NCBI GenBank assembly: GCA_964016885.1
Contig: OZ024755.1
Span: forward strand, 9,610,001 to 9,674,000
DNA length: 64,000 bases
Origin: Eledone cirrhosa
Lineage: Eukaryota
Reading direction: 5' to 3'
The notes under the pieces are model-generated. The model was not told where the DNA came from. It was given only the letters and a program-made list of their open reading frames with translations, and ran no database searches. Below are positions 1,456 through 63,413 of the stretch, piece by piece. A program made the translations under genes and the position numbers. Each line of letters starts with the position of its first letter. Position 1 is the first letter of the stretch.

Positions 1456-4392
1456 GACATGTTAAAGTGGTCCGTGCAATTTACAACTACACAGCACAAA
1501 GGGTAAGTATATTTAGTATATCATCATCATCATCGTTTAATGTCCATCTTCCACACTAGCATGGGTTAGACGGGTTTGTCCCACTTGAGACAAGATTGGT
1601 CAGGTGACCGTGTCTCGATCGTATAGAATTGTTTCTGGCTGGTTTTCTACAGCTGGAAGCTCTTCCTAACGCCAACCACATTTACAGTGTATATGTATAT
1701 ATTTTAATAAATAAATATATATATATATATAGTTTAGAGTTTATAATATATATATAGTTTAGAGTTTAGCGTAAAAGTTGGTGTTCATCGGGGCTCCGTT
1801 CTTAGCCCCCTACTATTTATTATTGCCCTTCAGGCTATAACAGTGGAGTTCAAGACCGGCTGCCCATGGGAACTCCTATACACAGATGATGTAACGCTCA
1901 TAGCTGAATCAATGGCTGAACTAGAGAAGAAATTCCAAACATGGAAGCATGGCCTAGAATCAAAAGGCCTTAAAATTAACCTGTCTAAGACTAAAGTTCT
2001 AGTTTGTAGGAAGGAAAATAGGGCTCTGGTTCCATCCGGGAAATGGCCATGCTCAGTGTGTAGGAAAGAAGTAGGTAGAAACTCCATTTTATGTCCCAAA
2101 TGCAAAGTATGGGTGCATAAAAGATGTAGTGGGATCACTGGTAAGCTAACTAAGAACATAGATTTTATATGTGGCCGGTGCTCTGGTGCAATAAGTAGCA
2201 GCAAGTGCCCACAGAATACTAGCTCATTCCATTGCACAGATGGTTCTATAGAAATAGTGGACACCTTCCGTTACTTGGGTGACAAAATAAGCAGTGGTGG
2301 GGAGGTGCTCTGAAAGTACAGTAGCTAGAGTCAGAACCGGATGGAAAAAGTTCAGAGAGCTTATACCACTATTAGCCGCTAAAGGGTTCTCTCTAAAAAT
2401 GAAAGGCAGGCTGTATGATGCCTGCATACGAACAATAATGTTACATGGCAGTGAGACCTGGGCATTGTGTGCAGAGGATATACGCAGACTGGAGAGGAAC
2501 GAAGCTTGCATGCTCCGCTGGATGTGTAATTGTAATATACGTGAACGGCAAAGCATAAACGAACTAAGGGAAAAATTAAAAATAAGAGGGATCAGATGTT
2601 GTTTACTCGAGAGAAGACTACGTTGGTATGGTCACGTGATGCGCATGAAAGACGCCAGCTGTATAAAAAAGTGCAGGGCAATAAAAATAAACGGTAGCCA
2701 CGGAGTAGGCAGACCCAGAAAAACCTGGGACGACTTGATAAATTCCGACCTCACACACTTACACCTCTCCAAGACAATGTCACTGGACCGTGATCTTTGA
2801 CGCTACACAGTAATACAGAAGACCCGCCTTACCTAAGTACAAAGTGAAACCTACTAGTCAGTAGGCACCTCTAACAAAAATACACCCCCGTCCCACTACC
2901 CCCACCCCATCCACACCACCCCTTTCAATGTAAAGTTATGTTGGTACCACAACATCCAGTCCGAAACAAATGAGGTCATGTAGGAGTCACGACAAAAAAA
3001 CACACAGTCCACACTGTAATGTGGCCGTGTAGGTAACATGGTAAAAACCTCCCAGTCCACACTGTAAACATAGTTGGTGTTAGGAAGGGCATCCAGCCGT
3101 AGAAAACCCGCCAGACAGTCCTATACGAGCAGGACAACAAATCTTGCCTCAAGTGGGAAAACTCTCGTCCAAACCCATGCAAGCGTGGAAGATGGACATT
3201 AAACGATGATGATGATGATATATATATATACTAAATGGAGAGAGAATAACCAAGTTATACTTAAAACATAATTTTAATTCTACACACATATATATCATCA
3301 TTACTTCTACTGCTACCACCACCACTACTATTATCACCACCACCACCAATACTACTATTACTAACACTGCTACCACCACCAATACCACTGCTGCTGTTGT
3401 TATATAACACTTTACTGGATATTTTTTCTTCATTGTATTATGATTTCAGGATAATGAATTAACATTTGAGGAAGGAGATGTTATTTATATAACTGACCAA
3501 AAAGATTCAAATTGGTGGAAAGGAAAATGTGGCTCAAAGGTTGGCTTAATACCAAGCAATTATGGTAAGATAAGATATTGTCTTGTAATTGTTGATGAAA
3601 TACATAAACATGATTCTGATTTGTTATAGTAAATTGTATAACACCATAGTCAGGATTCATTTATTTTATTTTTTGGCTTCCAAATTGAGAGACCACAGCT
3701 CTGATACTATGGGCATGTGGTTAGAATGTCTCAGAAAAGAATCACTGGACAGGACAGATTTTACAGGCAAAACCAACCGGCAAGAGACCCTTGGGTAAAC
3801 CCCAAGCAAGATGGTTGTATAACATCCTTGAGCTTGGCTAGTCACACTTTGGGATCCAGCTGGATCAGTTGGAGATGGTTGCTTATTTTAGGACTCGCTG
3901 GACGGAGTGTTTGAGGACTCTACCTCCACATCCCTCTCAAGAATAAGTGGGCGAAGAAGAAGGCTTCTGTTCTTCTTGTGACTAGACTAACTGGTCAGAG
4001 AACCACATCTTGCTCATATATTCTATATTTGGCATGGTTTATAAGACTGGGTGTTCTTCCTAATGCCAACCACTTTACAGAGTATACACAGAGCATCTTA
4101 CTTATTATGCAGCACTATCACTTTATATAATATACAGAATGCATTTTATTCTGGCACCAGCACTGTCACTTTACAAAGTGTACTGGGTGTATTCATCATA
4201 GCACTTACACTACTACTTTAGAGGGTTACTAGGTGCATTTTATCATGTAATAGCACTAACACAGCAAGACTTAAAATAAAGGTGTATATGGACACATATA
4301 CACCTTTATATTTAAAAATAAATACCATGAAGATGGTGGAATGAGGTATACTGTGTTCAGTGAACCATACTAGTATTGTATATACAGTACCA

Positions 4393-7526: not shown

Positions 7527-9166
7527 TAGTGATGTTATTATTAACGTTTGTTCAGGTCACTGCCTAGAATTGAATTCGGAATCTTGAGGTTAGTAGCCCG
7601 CTTTTTAACCACTTTTTTTTTTTTCCGTGAATTTTTAAGGCTTATAAACTGATATTTTTCTATCCTTCCTCAATACCGGTTCCCATATACTACTCATATC
7701 TGCACTAGGTATGCTTAGGAGGTTATTGTGTCCTAGCATATGTGCTGCCTCTTTTAGTTTTCGTGTTTTCCAGTGGTGTTCTCTGTCTATTATTTTAACT
7801 TCATCCCACAGGGGAAGGTGGTCTCTGTTTTTCCATACATGATCAGTTATACCCGATTTATTGATCTCTCCTTGTGTTACAGCTTTACGATGTTCTTCTA
7901 CCCTTATTTTGAGGCCTGTTTCGCCTTTGTATAACCTACCACAACTGCCTGGGATGGAGTACCCGCAGTCTTTGGCCATATTCTCTTCTATTGGTGGTTC
8001 TACTCGAAGGAGATATTTGCGAAGTGTTGTATTACTCTTGAATACTGTCCTGATGTCATATGGACCGCATATCTTTTGTATCTTTTCCGAGGGTAGACAG
8101 ACTGTGGTCAATTTTGAGGTTTCATCCTCTCTCCCCTTCCTAATTGGAGTGGATAGTATGTTTTTTGGATAGTTATTGCTTAACAAATTGTTACTTACCT
8201 TGATCATTTCTTCATGGTGTGTATCAGAATCACTACTTATATTCTTTGCTCAATGTTTTAGGCACTGAACCAGCCCTCTCTTTACACTGTATGGATGGTG
8301 GGAATTGTAGATGAGGTATCGTCCAGTGAAGGTTGGCTTGCGGTATACGGATGTCCTGAACCCATACTCAGTGTGTGTTATTAATACATCCAGGAATGTT
8401 AGCTGATTGTCTTTTTCTTTTTCCATTGTGAACTGTATGGATGACTTTATTGAATTCACATGACCTAGCAGTACTTGGACTTCTTCCTGGTGCAGCCAGA
8501 GTATGAAGGCGTTAACATATCTAAGCCATAGGGTTGGCTTTAGTGGTGTTGATCCTAAAGCTAAATTCTCAAAGTATTCCATGTATATATTGACTATTAT
8601 TGGTGAGAATGGCGAACCCATATATCCTGTCGATATATATCAGTGTCCATTCTGAAGTAGGTAGTTTCTACACAGAAGGTCAACATTTCCATCAAGTTTC
8701 CCATTTGGACTTTGGTGAACAGACTTACCACATCTAGACTCACCATCTGGTTGGATCCAATGGGGGTATCCTTGATCAATTCTGTGAAGTGGGTGGAATT
8801 CTTCATATACGATGTTGACTTACCTGCTAATGGACTGATTATATCCACAAGGAAGCGGCTTAGTGGATGACATGCCGAACCTCTGCCGCTCACTATGGGT
8901 CTTAATGGAATACCATCTTTGTGAATCTTAGGGAGACTGTACATGTGTGGTAGCTTACTGTAGTGTTGGGTTAGTTGTCTGTACTCAATTGGTATGAAGT
9001 GATCCTTGTTCTTGATTAAGATCTGTGACAACTTCCTCTCTCTTTTCAGAAAAAAAATAAATTCACAACAAAAAAAAAAGTGGTTAAAAAGTGGGCTACT
9101 AACCTCAAGATTCCGAATTCAATTCTAGGCAGTGACCTGAACAAACGTTAATAATAACATCACTAG

Positions 9167-12387: not shown

Positions 12388-15300
12388 ATGGGTAAGTAGA
12401 TAGTTTCTTCTCTCCTTTTTATATCTGAGTAATCCTCCTAATTTATTTCAATTTATTTCCTGTACACTCGATATTGTCAAGTTTAAAATCTAAGAATGTA
12501 ATTTTTTTAAATATTTAATTCGTACTTATATTTATTAACATGATTTTTCGAAATCAAGCGTGAATAAGTCTTGTGTTCGGATATTGCATCTGATTTAATT
12601 TTAAATATTTCTGTGTATATATTTATCAAATATACAATGTTTAATATATATTCTGCATATGTATTTATTAAATGTATTAAATTTTGCTTGTATAGCAAAA
12701 GATCTTTTTTAATCCTACACACGTGTTTATAATCGTTTAGTCTTAGCCGATTGTTCATGTTACAGAAGGAAGTTTCTATTTCATTAAATCATTTTGGCGA
12801 TCAAACATATTACAGATTTAGATCGTTTAAAAATATTGATATGCTACTTAGAAATATTCGATATACTCCTGTAATGTAATGTTAGTGCAAAGATATATAT
12901 CTTAATGTATCATCAATGGCTGTTGACTAGATCAAATATATATATGACCTACCATGCATAGTCGTTCTTAGGTTCTGTAGATATATCTACACTTTACTGA
13001 CTGCTTCTGGATTTATTTCCTCGTGAAATTTTGCAGAGATATATTTTTCAATTATATAGATTATGATTATGTTGTGAAAAATGTATATAGTTGGGTTGAT
13101 CGATGTCTTTAATTAAGTTATGTAGTTCGATCACCATAATATTGAATATTAGTCGGTATGGACAAGGAAAAATTAAAATTACCATCGTTCTGTTGGAAAC
13201 ATTAATTTATATTATTTATGATTTGATAAGTCGCCAAAATATACAGAATGAGATGGCAAGACTTTAAATAACCCCTCTTTTAGGGACCGGTTTTTTCCGG
13301 CATTGTTTCCGTGGTCCCAAAGATGCCGGATTAAAAATTTTCGAACTTCAAACACCGGTCGAATGTTACCCACCTAATAATTATATTTTGAATTTCTACC
13401 ACGAGATCTAAATAGAAAATATGTCTAATTCCTAATTACCTTCTATAAAGTGGAATTTATTGGTCTCGTCCGGATGTTTGTTTTTTTTTGTTTTAATGAT
13501 ACAATCGCAATGTATTGTTTTACAACAGATAATGATCCTAAAGTAAGAATATAATTTTATTTGTCCATCTGAAATTCATGTATGGTATGGATACTGTTTC
13601 ATTTCCCATCCTGTACCGATAACATGCAGCATTTTCCAAGACTTCCACGTTCATTCTTCGGAATAGTCCCATCCGCCCTCTGAATTAATAATTACTAATT
13701 TATTCCAAATTAGAATTGGGGTTAACTCAATTTCTTGTAATTCAAAATGCGAATTAACTCTAATTTGGAATAAGTTATTCGATTATATTTTATTTACATT
13801 AGTTTGTTTCGGGGAAGAGGGTATTATGGAGAAACACTATTTCTACAGATCAAATGGAGAGAATTCATTTGTGGCTAGCCGGCGAATTCGTATAGTGTTC
13901 GTCAAAATCACAGATTTCTCTTCGGTCATCATCACGATAAACAGCAACATCTTGATATTTAATTTTTATTGATGTAATTAAATTCTCCTTGGTTCCTAAT
14001 AATCCGCTGGTAATCACCGACTGCTTTATTTATTATGTGAACTTGGATGGTGTAGTGTCCGGCATGGTTATCGGGAATTTTTTAAAATTCAGACCACATG
14101 GCCATAATTGTTTACCTGTTGTTGCAGAAGTGCCGGACCTTTTTCTTATCCACATGTGACGAATACGTATTGGTTTATCCCAATAACAGCTGTGATGTTT
14201 CACAATATTTCTAGAAAGTCTATCAAGAAATCGTTTAATAAAGTTGCCTGATCCTTCGGTTCCCTCAGAATTTATATATATTTAATGTTTTCACTTTTTT
14301 TTTCCAGGTATCAGCCGCGCAAATTGGCATAGACGAAAAGCGACTGGCGGTCGCAAGGTTCAAATCCGCAAGAAGCGGAATTATGAGCTTGGCAGACCTG
14401 CCGCAATGACCAAGGTAGGTGGAGGTTTTGTAGAATTAAAATTACCAGCTACTGTGTAGCCATGTGTTTAGAGTGATCGTAGGGTTGTATGCGTGATTCT
14501 TGGGCCAGGCAACGTTTTGTTTCACTTTGCTCCACTCAACTAGGTGGGAAATAAGTTGAAGTGACCTTTTAAAACCCGTAATGGACTGACTGTCCTAGTC
14601 GTTTCGTAAGATTGAAGCCCTCTATTTAAAAATAAGATACCTGAGGTGCAGCTAAGCATAAATAAGTGTGATCTGTAACAACCAAAACATTGTTAGTACA
14701 ACTGTTGTGATATATTTTCTAGTTGGGGTCCAGAAGAGTTCACACAGTGAGAACTAGAGGTGGCAACAAAAAATTCCGAGCTCTGAGGCTAGACACAGGC
14801 AACTTTGCTTGGGGATCAGAAAGTAAGTATAATGTTCAATATTTTTGTATTGTGGTTATTCTCAGTTATTTGGAAATCATTTGAAGTATTGTAATGAACG
14901 TTAGCAGTCTGTATTTCATGTTTTGATGGATCGGTGTGAATATAATTACAGGTCAACTTTATAGTGTATTAGTGGAAGAAATATAATTTTATGGTAGAAT
15001 TTGAAGTAATCTGCAGATGATGAAACATTTCACGATGGTCTTCATTAATGTTTGTTGCTGATGTTATCCAGACCTGATGCAGTGTTGCTTTGTAGGGACT
15101 AGAGACTTTGGGTGGGCGGGTGAAAGATGTTGCTTTGTATGGATTAGACTGGTTGGTAGTACTAATTTGATTAATCCTTTTGGATACCAAACCACCCTTG
15201 GTATGCAAAACTTTTATATTTACTGAAAAATCTCCCATTATAATTTTATGCAAGGGTCTTTATATTCCAAAGCCCCGAGTTTATAATTTGGAAATTATAT

Positions 15301-18300
15301 TATTCAATCCTTCCAAGTTCTTGATTAATCATTAGAAATGTGGTAACAAAAGGGTCAAAGTTAGCTGCCTGTATTTCATGGTATGACATGTTGGTCTGAA
15401 TACAATTACTATAATTTGAAAACCCATCCCACCAAGTCAATTTTATAGTGATAAAATGTTTATTAGTGGAAGGAATATTATTTTATGGTAGAATTTAAAA
15501 TAATCTGCAGATGATGAAACATTTCACGATGGTCTTCATTAAAGTTTGTTGCTGAAGTTATCCAGACCTGATGCAGTATTATTTTGTAGGGGCTAATAAA
15601 GACTGAGTGTGGAATGAAAGTGTTGCTTTGTAGGGACTAAAGACTGGGGTGGGGGTGAAAGATGAAGTGGTACTTTTGTAAAAATAAATGTGGTTGGCGG
15701 TACTGATTTGTTTTGGATTCCAAACTAGTTCTGGTACAAAACTTTGTTTTTATATTTACCTAAAAATCTTCCATCAATTAATTTTATGATCCAAACACCA
15801 ACTTAATGAAGTCATTTTATTACCAAATCCTTCCAAATTCTTGATTAGTCATTAGAAATATGGTAATGTATTAAAGCTAGCTGCCTGTATTTCATGTTAG
15901 GATGTGTTGGTGTAAATGATATTGCTCCAGTTTGAAAACCTAACCCACCAGGCCAACTATGTAATAGGTATTAGTGGAGTGGAAGGAATATGATTTTATT
16001 TATGGTAGAATTTGAAGTGATCTGCAGATGATGAAACATTTCACGATGGTCTTCATTAATGTTTGTTGCTGAAGTTATCCAGAACTGATGCAGTATTGCT
16101 TTGTTGGTACTAGAGACTTTGGGTGGGCGAAAGATGTTATCCAGACCTGATGAAGTATTGTTTTATTTGTACTGATGACAAGGTGGAGTGAAATACCTCA
16201 TCTAGACTTGATACAGTATTGATTTTAGAAATACATTAAAATCTAACTCTTTTTTTTACCATATTTCTAATGAAATACAAACTAGTTTTTAGGTATTTAT
16301 TAAATTATTTCATAACTAACAAATTGTTTCTTATATAAAATTGTAGGATTTTAATTGAAATAGTTGCTTTAAAATGGTTAGTTTTGGATAAGATATTAAC
16401 ATATTGGATGCTAGTGACTCGGGGCTTGATAGTTTGTCTTATGTGGTAAGTGTAATGTTCTGAAAACGAGATTGTAATGTGGTTGGTGTATTATTATACA
16501 GTAGTTCCAAGTAATCTGCAAATGATGAAACATTTCACGATGGTCTTCATTAATGTTTGTTGCTGAAGTTATCCAGACCTGATGCAGTATTATTTTGTAG
16601 GGGCTAATAAAGACTGAGTGTGGAGTGAAAGATGTTACCTATGATTAAGTATTTTTTTTATATTGACTAAAGACTATGTTCAGCTAGTAATGTTTCCCCA
16701 AAGACCCTTCCGATGAACTCCATTTCAATCGCTTATATTTGCAATGGTTTTATTTCTGTCCACTTATATCCCTTCTCATTACTGAATCTGGCACCAGCTC
16801 CTAAAATTCTTGCATTTGATTTAGCCTCCAGTTGTCATTTATAATGACTGGGGGCAACTAGATATAATTTTGTGTTATTAAGCTCAACAAATCAGTAAGT
16901 TATTCTGCAGAGTTTATCAGATTTGTGATATTGGTATAATGTTCTGTTCCTGTATGAAAGTGTTGCAGAATTCTTTTGATCACAAATTGAATTTAACTTT
17001 TAGATGTTCGGTACATGAAATTACATTAGCAAAGCTTTCTTGAAGTACAAAGCAGCACAATGAGTGCCAGTCTTTACACTAATACAAATTTTCAAACCAT
17101 TTTTTGTTTTTTAACATTTTCTGCTAAATCATTACTGTTAAAGAGATCTGCACATGATGAAACATTTCACGATGGTCTTCATTAACCCTTTATTGCTGAA
17201 ATTATCTAGAACTGATGCAGTTTATCTCTTCAAAACCTGTCATTCAAGTGATTATAGTATCTTTAGATAGTGAAAGATTGCAATATTTAGAGTAAAGATT
17301 TTTAATGAGATGCAATTACAGTGCTATTTTATAATTTTTAAAAGGTTTTATATATATGGTACAGGACATTTAAAGTTATCAATTCTGATTTATCTTTAAA
17401 AATTATATTCTCAGCAATATTTGTTAGATTTTGGAGTTGGTATATTTATGTGTTTTTGTTCATTTAATTAGTTTCCATCTGTTGACAACTGATTTTAAAA
17501 AATGGTCTTTAATTTGTAGGTATCACCCGCAAAAGCAGAATTATTGATGTTGTATACAATGCTAGCAATAATGAGTTGGTGAGAATGAAGACATTGGTAA
17601 AAAGTTGCATTGTAACCATTGATGGCACACCTTTCCGACAGTGGTATGAGGCTCATTATGCTCTGCCACTTGGTAGGAAGAAGGGCGTGAAATTGGTAAA
17701 TATACTTTGATTTTGGTATTTGTGTTGACCCTTTTAATACTAAGCTGCTTGGAACCACTCTTGGTTCCATGGTACAATGCCATGTTTATTTCCATAATTC
17801 ATTGAATGTAGACTTATACAAGGAGCAAAATTTATATTACTAATTCCCACTAAATTCTTTAATATTTTCGAAATTATTTATAAGTATCATTAAGAGTATG
17901 GTAACAAAAAGATTTAACCCAATGATACCAGAATATTGTCTGGATCATGTTTAATGTACTGTTATATATTAGGGGCTGAATTGTTGGAGAGATTTTGTGA
18001 TGAATACAACGTCATCTTTCGCCTGAAGCAGAATGTTGCACAATATTTTAAATTCTGATAAATCTCTTCCAATTAATGTTTGTGATTAAGGTAAATAATA
18101 GTTATTGGTTTATTAAATTTGTTGTTCTTTAATGATAATAGGTAGATGTTTGATACAAAGTCACTTAACTGGTTGTCTGTTTTTTTTTTTTGCTTTGTAA
18201 TACATTGTGTACCTACTGTAAACCAGACACAGCAATCTATTTTATAATTGTTCTGAAATTTGTTTTCCATTAACGTTTATAATGTCTCTAATATATATAG

Positions 18301-21300
18301 ATATTATCGAAAATGCCAAGTGTTTATCATCAAATATTACTAATTCAGTTCATAAAGCAGTGTTGTAAATATTTAGTCATTATTTAGAAACTGGTAGGGA
18401 TTACATGGTTGCCTCTTTCATTGGCTGTGGATTTATACGAGCACAATTTATATTACTAATTCCCATCAAATTTAGTTTTGAAGAGAGATGTGATGTGCAT
18501 TTATGTATTAGGGGGCCGACTTGTTGGTGATATATTAGTTTTTGGGGGAAATTGTGATGTACAGTTATATATTAAGGGACTGAAATGTTCGTAATATATT
18601 AATTTTGGAGGGAGATTTTGTGATGAAAATTACGCCATCTTTCGCCTGAAGCAGAATGTTGCACAATTTCTAAAATTCTGATAAATCTCTTCCAAATATT
18701 TGTAACTGTCTTACCTATTTTTTAAGATAAATAATAGTTATTAGTTTATTAAATTTGATAGATGTTTATATAATATAATAGTCACATCACTGGCTACTGG
18801 TTGTCATACTTAATGTTAAAATAGATTTGAGTTTTGGGCAAAAGTCAAATTTATAAAAGGAGTTTACTTCCTGTTCAGTCCCACTCTGGCATATTTGGCA
18901 AGTATCTTCTGCTATTTGGGTTGAGCAAAACCATGTATGTAAGTAGGATTTTATTAGATGGAAACTGGCTGCATGTTATGTCTGCGGTGTATATGATCAG
19001 TTGGCTGTCTACAAAGCAGTGCTCCGGCATAGTCACTGTTTAATGAGTGAAACCAGTAAAAGTATATTACTAAAGAGTACTTGTGTGTTTGTGATCAACA
19101 GAGTTGTTTCCATTCAATGCAAATCTAGTTTATTTTACCAAAAGCAGAATGATGAAGATATATGAGCTGTAGTGCTAAATGTTTAGCTACCATGTCAGTA
19201 TGTCATAGTTACCCTGACTGCATTTGGTATAATTTCTCTCCCTTCTCCAGTTTCTCTGTTTGCCTAGGGAGGCAGACAATCACATGGTTTATACACATCA
19301 CCTGATCCTTTGTGGTGAGAGAAAGGGTTTTACTGCCTTATACCCTTTAATATACATGAGTATGAAGTACATATTGTAAAATACACACAGTAATCTATAT
19401 TATAGTAATTGTTCTAAAATCTTTTGTCAACATTTATATCACTTTATATCTATCTCAATGTATTATGTATAATCCATAATTTCAAGTGTTTATGTCTGTG
19501 TTACTCTCCTTGTATAAATACTTTTTGATTTGTAAATAAGTGTCTTTCATTAAGAGTATGGTAACAAAAAAATTTATCTTAGCAAGACCTGAATATTAAT
19601 GTCCTGATCGTGTTTTGTGTGCAGATATACATTAGAGGAGTTGAATTGTTGGTAATATATTAGTTTTGGAGAGAGATTTTGTGATGAATATAACGTCATC
19701 TTTCGCCTGAAGCAGAATGTTGTACAATATTTAAAGTTCTGATAAATCTCTTCCAATTAATGTTTGTGATTGTCTTACCTATTCTATAAGGTAAATAATA
19801 GTTATTAGTTTATTAAATTTGATAATTGTTCTTTAGCCCTTACATTACTCTATATATACTATTATATTTTCATGGTAAAGGCTTTACCTCGCATAATATC
19901 GAATGAGATTTTGAAAGTATTTATTTTGAGAACAATACCTTAACATCAGTTTGAGCAACCGGTTATGGCTAGTTTGAACATTAAAGGGTTAATAAATATT
20001 TGGTAGATGTTGGTGTGATATAATAGTCACTTTATTGGCTACTGGTTGTCAGTTTTTCCATGGTTAATGTTGAAATGGACTTTCTACTTGTGAGTACGTC
20101 AATTTTCTATGAGGAGTTCACTTCAGGTTTAAATGGTTATCTCAACAAATCTGGGATTTCTTTTGTCAAAATGATTTTGTAAATGTCTTGCAATAGAAAT
20201 ATGGTAATAAAAGAGTTAACTCAATATGACCAGAGTATTGGCGTGCAGTTAAAAACTGGGCTGAATTATTGGTAAATATTATATTGTGGAGAGATTTTTG
20301 TGATGAATATTATGCCATCTTTCGTCTGAAACAGAAATGTTGCACAATCTTGTAAAATCTGATAAATCTCTTCCATATAATAGTTATTGGTTTATTAAAT
20401 TTGGTAGATGTTTATGTGATATAAAAAAATCATTTGGCTATGATGTGGTGACTGATTTTTTGCTGTAATTTTTACCCTAAGGAAGCCTTTGGTGTTGATT
20501 TGAATTTTAACATGTTAGTTTTCTGTTTAGGCCCTGTAGATTTTTGTTTTCTCATAGTCACAGGTTGTCAAAAATGCTGATTGGGTGAATCAATAGTCTT
20601 CAGATATTTTAATTTTCCATTTCTTTATGTATTTATATTTACCAAAGGGCAGGATGATGATTATAAATACTGTAGTGGCTAAATTATTTTAGCTATGGTG
20701 ACAGTATGTCATAGTTACACTGACTGCATTTGGTATTTTACTGTTAATCTCCAACAATCTCAATTTTGCAATTGCTGGAATATTGAATAGTGAGTAACAT
20801 GTATTTGTTAAAACCTTTGCAGACTGAACAAGAAGAATCTGTTCTCAATAAAGTGCGTTCACGAAAGAATCAAAGAAAATACACATTACGGCGAAAGACA
20901 GCCAAGGTTGAGCCAGCTCTGCAGGAGGAATTTATGACTGGTCGCTTATTAGGTGAGTACTTCAGAATTCTTAGTGACTTTACAAAGTGGATGAGTTTTA
21001 TTCCAGCACCAGATGGTTGTTACACCAGACAGAAAAGTCCCTTTAGATTAAATTACCAAACGCTAACCCCTGGTCTCAGATCTACTTTTGAGTGGTGGAT
21101 GGTCATCATGGTTATTGTAGAGTTCAGTTTTTCATCTTGTACCACTTTTGGTAAGATAAGCCCTTGGCATCTTTATATGGAGGATGTTGTATAAAAAATT
21201 TAATTCATATGTTTATAGTGGAGAGATAGTGAAAGTATTCAATAATCTAACGTAAAACCTATAATTTGTAATGTGATGCAGTCAGTGGTTTTAAGAGATA

Positions 21301-21654
21301 TCTTGCTAATTAATTAATTAAGTCTGTAACAATTGTGTGAACTTTCACTAGATATTTATGTCATTGTTGGCTATTTTGATACCAAACATCCTCCTGGATC
21401 ATGGGATTTCCGTTTTCCCACACCTGCAATAGTTTATATTTTAAAAATCTATAAAAGTGTGCCTTAACCCAAATTAATGAGAAATTCCATTCTATTACTA
21501 ATCTATATTTTGTTAGTTAATTATATTTTTTACTTTCATTACAGCAAAAATCACATCCCGACCTGGTCAGTATGGTAAATCTGATGGTATTGTACTTGAA
21601 GGAAAGGAACTTGAATTTTATATGAGAAAAATCAAGGCAAAGAAAGGGAAATAG
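12388..21654 (+). CDS. RPS8: 40S ribosomal protein S8 (eS8), complete; exons 12388-12391, 14308-14414, 14723-14822, 17520-17695, 20823-20952, 21545-21654
   Basis: 627 nt encode 208 aa: [16 protein letters not shown]...[13 protein letters not shown]...[13 protein letters not shown]...[29 protein letters not shown]...[32 protein letters not shown]. All introns are GT-AG. AATAAA is at 21782. Confidence 0.98.
14045..14157 (+). ncRNA. Candidate box H/ACA snoRNA 3' hairpin in RPS8 intron 1
   Basis: Lower stem ggatgg/ttatcc, pocket tgtagt + ctttttc, upper stem gtccggcat/gtgccggac, ACA at 14152. The pocket fits 28S GAAAAG-UU-ACCACA with one mismatch. The 5' hairpin and H box were not securely found. 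Confidence 0.45.
15011..15082 (+). ncRNA. SNORD35: Box C/D snoRNA, SNORD35/snR73-like, copy 1
   Basis: ctgca stem, C box ATGATGA, guide TTTCACGATGGTCT complementary to 28S AGACCGUCGUGAGA, D box CTGA, closing tgcag. Confidence 0.88.
15505..15576 (+). ncRNA. SNORD35: SNORD35-like snoRNA, copy 2
   Basis: Same boxes, guide and terminal stem as copy 1. Confidence 0.88.
16022..16093 (+). ncRNA. SNORD35: SNORD35-like snoRNA, copy 3
   Basis: Same boxes, guide and terminal stem as copy 1. Confidence 0.88.
16516..16587 (+). ncRNA. SNORD35: SNORD35-like snoRNA, copy 4
   Basis: Same boxes, guide and terminal stem as copy 1. Confidence 0.88.
17148..17220 (+). ncRNA. SNORD35: SNORD35-like snoRNA, copy 5 (most diverged; extended stem aagagat/atctctt)
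   Basis: The guide and C/D boxes are identical to the other copies despite unrelated flanks. Confidence 0.88.
17987..18070 (+). ncRNA. Box C/D snoRNA, SNORD32/SNORD51/snR39-like, copy 1
   Basis: gagattt/aaatctc stem, C box GTGATGA, guide CGTCATCTTTCG + D' CTGA complementary to 28S CGAAAGAUGGUG, D box CTGA. Confidence 0.85.
18607..18693 (+). ncRNA. SNORD32/51-like snoRNA, copy 2
   Basis: GTGATGA..CGCCATCTTTCG-c-CTGA..CTGA, with terminal stem. Confidence 0.85.
19137..19228 (+). ncRNA. SNORD46: Box C/D snoRNA, SNORD46/snR63-like, copy 1
   Basis: C box ATGATGA, guide GTCATAGTTAC-c-CTGA complementary to 28S GUAACUAUGAC, stem accaaa-gcag/ctgc-tttggt. Confidence 0.88.
19668..19754 (+). ncRNA. SNORD32/51-like snoRNA, copy 3
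   Basis: Same boxes, guide and terminal stem as copy 1. Confidence 0.85.
20288..20374 (+). ncRNA. SNORD32/51-like snoRNA, copy 4
   Basis: GTGATGA..TGCCATCTTTCG-t-CTGA..CTGA, with terminal stem. Confidence 0.85.
20641..20734 (+). ncRNA. SNORD46: SNORD46-like snoRNA, copy 2
   Basis: ATGATGA..GTCATAGTTACACTGA with terminal stem, about 90-100 nt upstream of the 3' splice site. Confidence 0.9.
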
Positions 21655-24106
21655 TAGTAATGCGTGGAGTGTATTGTCCATATCTTTATGGCTTAAGGAG
21701 TATTCCTGGCATCTTTGTAATGAAAGTAACCATCTTCTATATTGGAATGTCTGTCAAAGATGTGCTTTCAAGAATTGGGCAAATAAAGTACTATTGTTAA
21801 ATGGATATGATTTTGTTCTGTTTGTTTTTGGTCATCTTGTAAAGAATACTGAGTATTACAACCTTCCGGTAAAGTTTCAGTATTAACTTAGTAATAATAT
21901 TATCGTTACTGTAGGTGCACTGAATGCGTAGTCTCTGGTATGTATTTTAAGTTTGTACTAAGCAGGACTTTTATATAGATATAGAGAGAGAGCAAGTGCT
22001 ATTTAATTATAGGTTGTATATATATAAAGAGGTCCAGACTCTTCCTATATGTGTATATCATCATCATCAATTAATGTCCGTTGCCCATGCTAATTTATCT
22101 ATATATGGGGTCTCTCATCTCTTCCTATGTATAGATAGATATATGTGGGGTAGAGCATTGGCCCTGCAATCGAAAGGTGAGTTCAATTCTCAGTCCGGGT
22201 GATGTGTTGTTTCCTTGAGCAAGACACTTTATTTCAGTTTGCTCAGCTGTAGAAAGGAACTGACTGGGGTCCCTATCGTATAGGTGCCACGGAAAAAAAG
22301 AAGCACCCTGAGGTTGGTGTTAGGAAGGGCATCCAGCCAGAATCAGTTCCCGTCCCACCCTACGTAAAGTGATGATATGGATGTTTTTGAAAAAGGTTCT
22401 TACATAAAATAATGATGGAAGTTGCTAAATATAAACAGTTTTGAATGTTAGAGCCAAGGGTGGTTGTATTTACACGGGGTGGGACCTGATCAAATACATC
22501 CAGTATACTGTGTAAAATGGTAGTACTGGCACTATCCATTACACTGTCTATTGATAGTACTGGTACAGTTATAAATTACATTCTTGCTGGAAGAGCATCT
22601 AACCATAGAAACTGCCAAATACAGAACATAGCGTTTTTTACTGATATCCTGTAGACAGACATTGAAGAATGTCAATTTTGCAATATAGAGCCAGGAGGAG
22701 AACAATTAACAAAGAGAATACTGTAACCCTTTAGCATTTACATTACTCTATATTTACTATTGTATTTTCATGGTAAAGGCTTTATCTCACATAATATCAA
22801 ATCTATGAGATTTTGAGAAGAAAACCTTAACATAAGTGGCCAGAGAATTCTGGCCGGTTTAAATGCTAAAGGGTTAAACCAATAAAGCAACACAAATGAA
22901 TTAAAAGAAAACTGCAGGAGCATGTCATGGTAATTACATAAAAGCTTTACTGGTAACATCAGTTTTGTCAGTACAATAAATTCTGATTACTTATACATTT
23001 TGTGCCAAATCAATTGTGTTCATAGGTTTGTGTATATTCATATTGTATATATAAATATACATACATACAACCATATGTGTGAAACACACTAGTTTTCAGT
23101 GACACTCATTCCCTATGTTTTTGAAAGTCTTAAAATAGCAATTAACATTCCCCTAAATCTAACCAAGAAATCAGAATTGATGTGGCATACATACATATTG
23201 CATATGCATGTGATCAGTATACATGTAGCATACATACATGTTATTTATTACATATGATCAGTATATATGTGACATACATGTTGCATATTCATGTGATGCA
23301 CCATACACACTTTGCATATTCGTAAGATCAGTATATATGTGACATACATGAGATGAACTACAGATATTTCATATACATGTAATGCACCATACACTACACA
23401 CATTTCATATTCATGTGATGCAAGTATTCAATATATATATGGCAGTCAATTTGCAATATTTTACAAGGTGCAAAAATAAAATTAAAACAATGAAAGAAAA
23501 TATTTCAATATGATAATAATAATAATTTAAATATTTCATACAAAGGAACAGCTATAGAAATAATTAGAATTCTAATAAAAATACTAAAATATCAGTAATC
23601 TCGCTCATTTCACAATTAACGATTACATCTTTAATTCCACATCCCTCCTCATCTTCACAATGATACATCATACACTCATTTTCTATAATGTATTTCTTTT
23701 TTTCTTCTTTTTATAACTTTTCTGTAATTTTAATGAATATTTTCTTCATTTAGTGAGGTTGTTCAATTTTGTTTCTTTACACTTTGAAAAGCCCCACTAG
23801 AATAGCTTGGCCAGTTATATATTTATTGGTACCAGTCCCTGTTTGGTGTAAGGTATGACTTATGCTGCTACTTTCATTCAGGTCACACATTCACATACAA
23901 GGATACACACACGCACACTTGTGTTAACTTGCAAAACCTTGGTGAGATCAGTTGCACAAACACTAGATGGTCATTCACTCGATGCTGGGATGAAAAGTTA
24001 AAAACAAATATATGTTTATATGAAAAATATCTGTGAGCATCTGTAATGACTTATTTTTTCAACTGGCTTCACTTCATTTTCTTCCATTTTTATCTTACAT
24101 TCACCT

Positions 24107-63413
<39,307 letters not shown>

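Follow-up and report, generated by a model that had tools for sequence, protein, structure and literature searches.

In animals, small nucleolar RNAs (snoRNAs) occur predominantly one per intron (PMC11028025; published sources are cited here and below for the sections consulted), and several snoRNA genes per host intron have been described for Drosophila H/ACA clusters and for rice clusters (PMC3089462). The supplement of PMC11028025 (84 of 109 matching rows listed) gives as animal C/D intronic clusters mostly imprinted arrays and U3 copies with some pairs, and includes three platypus RPL13A rows and, in its column-parsed part, one C. elegans row; all 20 RPS8 rows listed, SNORD46 included, are mono-intronic, and closer cases may stand elsewhere in the table. 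Here we analyse a 64,000-nt window of the octopus Eledone cirrhosa genome (contig OZ024755.1 of assembly GCA_964016885.1, positions 9,610,001 to 9,674,000), in which two introns of the ribosomal protein gene RPS8 carry eleven box C/D units: five SNORD35-like units (A1 to A5) in intron 3, and four Me28S-Am982-like (B1 to B4) and two SNORD46-like units (C1, C2) in intron 4. The layout of several units per intron is shared with the fly H/ACA and the rice clusters, from which the octopus locus differs in being of the box C/D class, in a mollusc, with spacers of 291-571 nt between the units of an intron. More than one snoRNA per excised intron is likewise found in vertebrate snoRNA-related long non-coding RNAs (sno-lncRNAs; the Prader-Willi syndrome (PWS) locus, SLERT), but these have two end-capping snoRNAs, whereas the octopus introns have five and six ribosomal RNA (rRNA) guides with constrained inner copies. 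A literature search, covering few subscription papers, found no report of multi-snoRNA introns in molluscs. The guides and the kind of layout are known; for the class, the copy number and the animal group we found no description.

An earlier reading of the same DNA (the original prediction) had placed eleven C/D snoRNAs, five and six, in these two RPS8 introns with intact boxes and terminal stems, and all of this is borne out. Its precedents for multi-snoRNA introns were plants and some Drosophila clusters; the plant precedent holds, but the fly one is of the H/ACA type, fly C/D RNAs being one per intron (PMC3089462), and the octopus case is therefore slightly more unusual than had been said.

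The host gene is intact (Table 1). The peptide of its exon 4 is identical over 58 of 58 residues to Argonauta hians RPS8 (P0005, the best full-identity match among 984), and a comparison by eye of the whole protein with the Argonauta hians record gives six differing positions, which points to a close argonaut-like relative. Splicing was read from run X4, whose library type is unrecorded and which we treated as RNA-derived since spliced contigs are present. One X4 contig, at depth 3615, joins exons 2, 3, 4 and 5 and skips exactly 2697 and 3127 nt, and splice joints for introns 2 to 5 were found in this run. Because the contig skips both introns entire, each array sits inside one intron of the main RPS8 mRNA and is removed whole. 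The same run holds intron pieces at depth 4-13, one of them reaching into exon 5, as pre-mRNA would give, and three intron-4 contigs of 608-977 nt that are continuous over spacers (18058-18665, 18728-19617 and 19905-20851). No GT..AG joint within intron 3 or 4 was seen among the 15 joints listed of 268, rare forms being lost in contigs. Exon 4 is also 98-100% like two records and at most 91% like all others listed, and the RPS8 protein looks to have evolved faster than in other molluscs.

All eleven units have box C (RUGAUGA), box D (CUGA) and a terminal stem, and those of intron 4 follow one another in the order B1, B2, C1, B3, B4, C2. Only C2 lies near its 3' splice site (99 nt), the other ten being at least 304 nt away. 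The original prediction had looked to Rfam for SNORD35, SNORD32/51 and SNORD46. At gathering level Rfam returns no match in the whole window, the eleven units included, whereas at E-value level C/D families match every unit; as each score is under gathering, we name the units '-like'. The A units score 28.4-35.6 bits against SNORD35 (gathering 36; E 3e-5 to 5e-3; best A5, 35.6) and are also matched by fly sn3071, the B units 28.7-31.8 bits against snoMe28S-Am982 (gathering 49; E 0.03-0.17), and the C units 24.8-24.9 bits against SNORD46 (gathering 40; E about 0.07). The calls of SNORD35 and SNORD46 thus stand, and for the B units snoMe28S-Am982 takes the place of SNORD32/51, which themselves are not among the matches listed. 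We take vertebrate SNORD32A/51 to guide the same site as snoMe28S-Am982. Elsewhere in the window no further snoRNA was found at E up to 0.5, bar one weak minus-strand match over a simple repeat (45720-45785), and a crude scan for independent promoters, with octopus elements unmodelled, found a TATA-like word before two of the eleven units and box B before none. Directly behind A1, four G-runs (15095-15120) form a possible G-quadruplex, a pattern not found behind the other units.

Compared with their nearest families, the A units share with SNORD35 (RF00211) and fly sn3071 (RF01166) the guide upstream of box D', its register and the large-subunit rRNA site; they differ from SNORD35 in being shorter (61 nt between box ends), in scoring below gathering, in occurring as five copies in one RPS8 intron, and in their D' box, a degenerate CAUU in the SNORD35 register that is invariant in all five copies and further from the Rfam consensus. 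The B units share the D' guide and the perfect D' box (CUGA) of snoMe28S-Am982 (RF00535, clan CL00054), from which they differ in that a single intron carries four of them, mixed with units of another family. The C units use box D, and have this guide and the host gene in common with SNORD46 (RF00218), which lies in RPS8 of human, macaque and zebrafish; the octopus has two copies, in an intron shared with four other units, whereas the RPS8 rows listed in the supplement are mono-intronic.

Table 1. Positions in the 64,000-nt window of the RPS8 host gene, its C/D units (box C to box D) and associated elements.
Feature	Position	Strand	Evidence or remark
RPS8 (eS8) host gene, six coding exons, 208 aa, intact	12388..21654	+	open frame, five GT..AG introns
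RPS8 exons	12388-12391, 14308-14414, 14723-14822, 17520-17695, 20823-20952, 21545-21654	+	
Intron 3, 2697 nt, five A units	14823..17519	+	joint 14822 to 17520, GT..AG, depth 3615 in X4
Intron 4, 3127 nt, four B and two C units	17696..20822	+	joint skips 3127 nt, GT..AG, depth 3615 in X4
A1, SNORD35-like, 5'-most	15017..15077	+	Rfam E-value match, guide pairing, stem
A2, SNORD35-like, inner	15511..15571	+	Rfam E-value match, guide pairing, stem
A3, SNORD35-like, inner; upstream flank also in organism B	16028..16088	+	
Partial extra copy, 3' end of A unit, without box C or guide	16133..16164	+	91% to A1, A2 and A4; repeat family D4 in self-comparison
A4, SNORD35-like, inner	16522..16582	+	Rfam E-value match, guide pairing, stem
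A5, SNORD35-like, 3'-most, most diverged A; 304 nt to 3' splice site; also in organism B	17154..17215	+	
B1, Me28S-Am982-like, 5'-most	17997..18058	+	Rfam E-value match, guide pairing, stem
27-nt AU-rich motif behind B1, candidate processing element	18095..18121	+	
B2, Me28S-Am982-like, inner	18620..18681	+	Rfam E-value match, guide pairing, stem
27-nt AU-rich motif behind B2	18731..18757	+	
C1, SNORD46-like, inner; in organism B with unlike flanks	19149..19217	+	
B3, Me28S-Am982-like, inner; also in organism B	19681..19742	+	
27-nt AU-rich motif behind B3	19795..19821	+	
B4, Me28S-Am982-like, inner, most diverged B	20300..20362	+	
27-nt AU-rich motif behind B4	20377..20403	+	
C2, SNORD46-like, 3'-most; 99 nt to 3' splice site; also in organism B	20654..20723	+	
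High-copy dispersed repeat piece in B3-B4 spacer	19831..19992	.	three more copies in window; summed depth >300000 in X1 and X5

The targets of the guides were sought on stand-in large-subunit (LSU) rRNA loci from metagenomes, used in place of cephalopod rRNA; scanning for the expected A target gave 114 loci. Pairing of the C guide lies 400-900 nt upstream of the A site in 34 of them, nine of which also show the B guide pairing 2.0-2.4 kb upstream. The pairing was read on three of these loci, L001, L008 and L069, and Rfam classes the last as eukaryotic LSU rRNA. On each, every A guide makes 14 pairs with its conserved site, every B guide 12 and the two C guides 11 apiece; pairing begins at the second base before the box, and the fifth base hits the same rRNA nucleotide in every copy. 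Among 150 random intron pieces, B2 was equalled by none, the C guides by one, and B1, B3 and B4 by five. The A guide was also equalled by none of the 150, in a test that is circular because the loci were picked by the A site. We take the sites to be Cm4506, Am1511 and Am3739 of human 28S. On the basis of this pairing the units are predicted to be three ordinary guides of 28S 2'-O-methylation with ordinary targets. A second guide in the A units, upstream of box D, was rejected for now: its duplexes of 8-10 nt are equalled by 16-75% of the 150 random intron pieces, and it is altered in A5. The stretch before box D in A2-A4 (15559-15567 and equivalents) can pair with 8 nt of the LSU peptidyl-transferase region and with 10 nt close to the 5' end of 18S, lengths that do not exceed chance, and might serve as a second guide or as a helper. 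Box D guides in the B units were discarded too, their pairing not exceeding random. A lineage-specific break (H88) has been described in octopus 28S (preprint PMC13321053); methylation is unmentioned in the sections consulted, and we draw no link.

Selection on the boxes and guides, inner copies included, is supported by how the copies differ. With columns classed by us from the guide positions, 76 of 78 box and guide columns are invariant in the units against 78 of 119 others (Fisher p 9e-9), and both variable guide columns retain pairing through G-U. When only the inner copies A2-A4 and B2-B4 are counted, private changes fall on 1 of 168 functional sites and on 12 of 207 others (p 0.005). 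C1 and C2 have cores 85% alike and identical boxes and guide, none of 22 functional columns differing between them against 20 of 50 others. Cores were more conserved than their 100-nt flanks (p<0.05) in all ten A pairs, in two of six B pairs and in the C pair; as unrelated pieces align at 68% under the same settings, many of these flanks are near background. Gene conversion alone would be insufficient to explain the pattern, since it copies all positions alike, yet the changes spare boxes and guides. That the units are conserved while their spacers diverge, as originally predicted, is upheld for the boxes and guides, but the spacers are still recognisable as duplicates and the B units mostly do not exceed their flanks significantly.

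The copies are not assembly duplicates, because they differ among themselves (their cores are 82-98% alike) and because all eight contig pieces listed for the DNA-like run X1 match the window with no differences; none of these pieces reaches across the array, and possibly X1 is itself the source sample. Self-comparison of the window shows local tandem duplication as the origin of the copies, as read from present-day alignments: A1, A2 and A3 belong to a tandem repeat of roughly 500 nt whose copies are now 73% alike, the flanks shared by A4, A5, B and C copies are shorter, and the spacers are diverged duplicates rather than unrelated sequence. A second organism (organism B) was represented by run X5, whose pieces are about 89-97% alike to the window (40 of 363 rows listed). 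They hold the A3 upstream flank, A5, C1, C2, the B4 flank, and B3 with upstream flanks of two kinds. Between the two organisms the A3 flank matches at about 89%, above paralogous flanks inside this genome, so the duplications would be older than the split from organism B. For the C1 piece of organism B the alignment is confined to 19115-19241 (127 nt, 6 changes), its flanks being unalignable, and among the rows listed the changes near units at 16014 and 17218 preserve a stem pair while that at 17225 breaks one unless compensated. A contig of organism B at depth 42, where single-copy pieces have 14-18, carries at 16062 a base found in none of A1-A4 here, which suggests that several A copies there changed together, depth being a mere hint of copy number. 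Trees of upstream flanks, cores and downstream flanks disagree, and gene conversion probably acts too. Restriction-site-associated DNA (RAD) run X6 gave no match outside repeats.

Each of the eleven units is predicted to form an external stem of 11-18 pairs at -11.0 to -14.4 kcal/mol, as compared with a 5th percentile of -7.8 and a 1st percentile of -12.8 kcal/mol among 500 random intron pieces. In the A units the outer stem varies in sequence and is 93.8% paired, with two pairs varying on both sides and three on one. Vertebrate C/D RNAs distant from the 3' splice site require extended stems if they are to be processed independently of splicing (PMC4150776, PMC5519232). By analogy, the modelled octopus stems would fit splicing-independent assembly on every copy, and they are silent on how copies separate. 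A 27-nt AU-rich motif stands 15-53 nt behind all four B units with 26 of 27 columns invariant, exceeding the non-functional parts of the snoRNAs; even with 4 mismatches allowed, the window has no other copy, and a search for a pairing partner gave loose AU-rich duplexes only. This motif may act as a signal, or may mark a tract of conversion. Another motif, found in spacers of introns 3 and 4 (near 15334, 16256 and 20195), was rejected as a processing signal, as it belongs to a dispersed repeat present elsewhere in the window. Behind C1, the segment 19251-19314 combines a donor-like site with a strong pyrimidine tract; no splicing of it was seen, and it could be a poison exon.

We give an even chance to the reading that the locus is a polycistronic intronic box C/D cluster, whose units are assembled, cut apart and then trimmed. 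Three guides were multiplied by local duplication within RPS8 introns 3 and 4, and in the main mRNA each intron is spliced out whole. The external stem predicted for each unit would permit core-protein assembly at a distance from the branch point and independent of the spliceosome, a step that we infer from the vertebrate analogy. The spacers might then be opened by an endonuclease without need of a long hairpin, for instance a single-strand or EndoU-type activity, and exonucleases would trim to each protein-protected unit, yielding several mature guides per transcript. A splicing-independent endonucleolytic snoRNA route exists in animals with XendoU of Xenopus (PMC10557570). Several observations weigh against this polycistronic reading. 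The human XendoU homologue is not shown, in the sections consulted of the same source, to release snoRNAs, and a vertebrate intron with two snoRNAs yields a sno-lncRNA that stays uncut (PMC11028025). None of nine spacers folds better than its shuffles (z -0.13 to +3.2, 12 shuffles each), so the spacers hold no substrate of the RNase III type (yeast Rnt1); introns 3 and 4 are not U-richer than introns 1 and 5, and no motif is common to all spacers. Stem covariation is weak, being reached by 39 of 500 shuffles, and the pairing of cognate flanks does not surpass that of swapped ones (18 of 120 and 6 of 24 permutations). The inner-copy signal comes mostly from B4, B2 and B3, A2-A4 having one private change in total, and a mature unit was seen in no read of the runs examined, none of which is a small-RNA run.

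The original prediction held that this lineage must cut between units or else mature only some copies. Cutting is not compulsory, given sno-lncRNAs (PMC11028025) and methylation by linear C/D RNA in yeast (PMC8609340), and it is unlikely, though worth keeping in view, that the introns yield uncut multi-guide strings. Exonucleases would then stop at the outermost units and leave linear sno-lncRNAs of ~2.2 kb (A1 to A5) and ~2.7 kb (B1 to C2); equally unlikely is that such strings would carry five or six assembled C/D domains and guide methylation as such. Vertebrate two-snoRNA introns give products of this kind (PMC11028025), and in yeast partly processed linear C/D RNA, though not lariats, induced methylation (PMC8609340). 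Uncut strings would account for the inner-copy constraint without a new nuclease and agree with the unstructured spacers, yet the known C/D-type sno-lncRNAs are presented as nucleoplasmic protein decoys and not rRNA guides (PMC11028025), the spacers freely accept repeat insertions, stretches of 0.3-0.6 kb of unstructured AU-rich RNA would likely be nicked, and the motif behind all B units suggests per-unit handling. Less probable still is that minor non-coding exons, nested introns or recursive sites place one snoRNA per intron in a short-lived form or one degraded by nonsense-mediated decay (NMD). Fly C/D clusters of the mfl locus obey the one-per-intron rule through extra exons (PMC1821038), and here, by a crude site scan of low sensitivity, a donor-like site follows an AG 30-50 nt behind B1 (18091) and B3 (19791), a candidate cassette exon lies at about 19251-19314 behind C1, and rare forms would be dropped by contigs in a run for which 15 of 268 joints are listed; but B2 has a mutated donor and B4 has lost it by deletion, and the alignment of C1 from organism B ends at 19241, before the candidate exon. 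Intron 3 has no acceptor above the cut-off, which three of the five real acceptors miss too, the three X4 intron-4 contigs run unbroken over spacers, and long stems on all units would be less needed were each unit near its own 3' splice site.

The other branch of the original dilemma, maturation of only some copies, is weakened by the constraint on inner copies. Two further readings seem to us improbable. In the one we doubt less, assembly would be inefficient and exonucleases would pass unassembled units, leaving about one mature snoRNP per intron, from a copy that varies, with extra copies raising the odds. No new enzyme would be required, constraint on all copies is predicted, and most units do lie away from the position that favours splicing-coupled assembly; against this, strong stems on all eleven units imply efficient assembly, by which at least two units would be assembled and a string would result, and the B and C guides of intron 4 would vie for one slot. 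We find it most improbable of all that only the terminal copies work, the inner ones being silent duplicates whose likeness would come from recent duplication and gene conversion. The base at 16062 in organism B and the discordant flank and core trees are signs of homogenisation, and a broken partial copy is present at 16133-16164, but changes avoid boxes and guides in inner copies too, C1 and C2 are identical in boxes and guide despite their diverged cores, and C1 is preserved in organism B while its flanks fail to align. Under the polycistronic reading the copies could be advantageous through more guide or simply tolerated and kept in repair; of the proposal that tandem duplication raises guide dosage, the duplication is retained, the rise in dosage being conjectural.

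Elsewhere in the window, further copies of the high-copy dispersed repeat lie at 22729-22877, 43148-43314 and 49203-49352. An inverted repeat in RPS8 intron 1 (13695-13778), which weakly matches a microRNA model on both strands, is probably a small transposon remnant. A lysine- and serine-rich open frame of 778 aa with short repeats (29781-32117, minus strand) is probably one large exon, and an exon at 62967-63413 (minus strand) resembles by eye what we take to be a JmjC histone demethylase domain. Broken reverse-transcriptase-like frames at 1747-2800 (plus strand) and 7635-9118 (minus strand) are, by eye, presumably LINE-type and Penelope-type remnants.

Because gathering-level Rfam misses all eleven genes, counts of cephalopod snoRNAs are probably too low. 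How several snoRNAs are released from one animal intron is unresolved in reviews, and for human intronic snoRNAs the sections consulted give no established endonuclease (PMC11028025, PMC10557570). The RPS8 locus offers a clean natural test, as its host is a housekeeping gene with high expression, its three guides are known, and most of its units carry copy-specific variants. We know of no endonucleolytic step that animals apply to C/D clusters. It is a tentative possibility, which we rate below an even chance, that this octopod lineage escaped the rule of one C/D snoRNA per intron, either through a routine endonucleolytic step, for which the 27-nt B motif would be a candidate signal, or through working kilobase strings of multi-guide snoRNPs; if this is true, other snoRNA host genes in the lineage would be expected to carry similar arrays.

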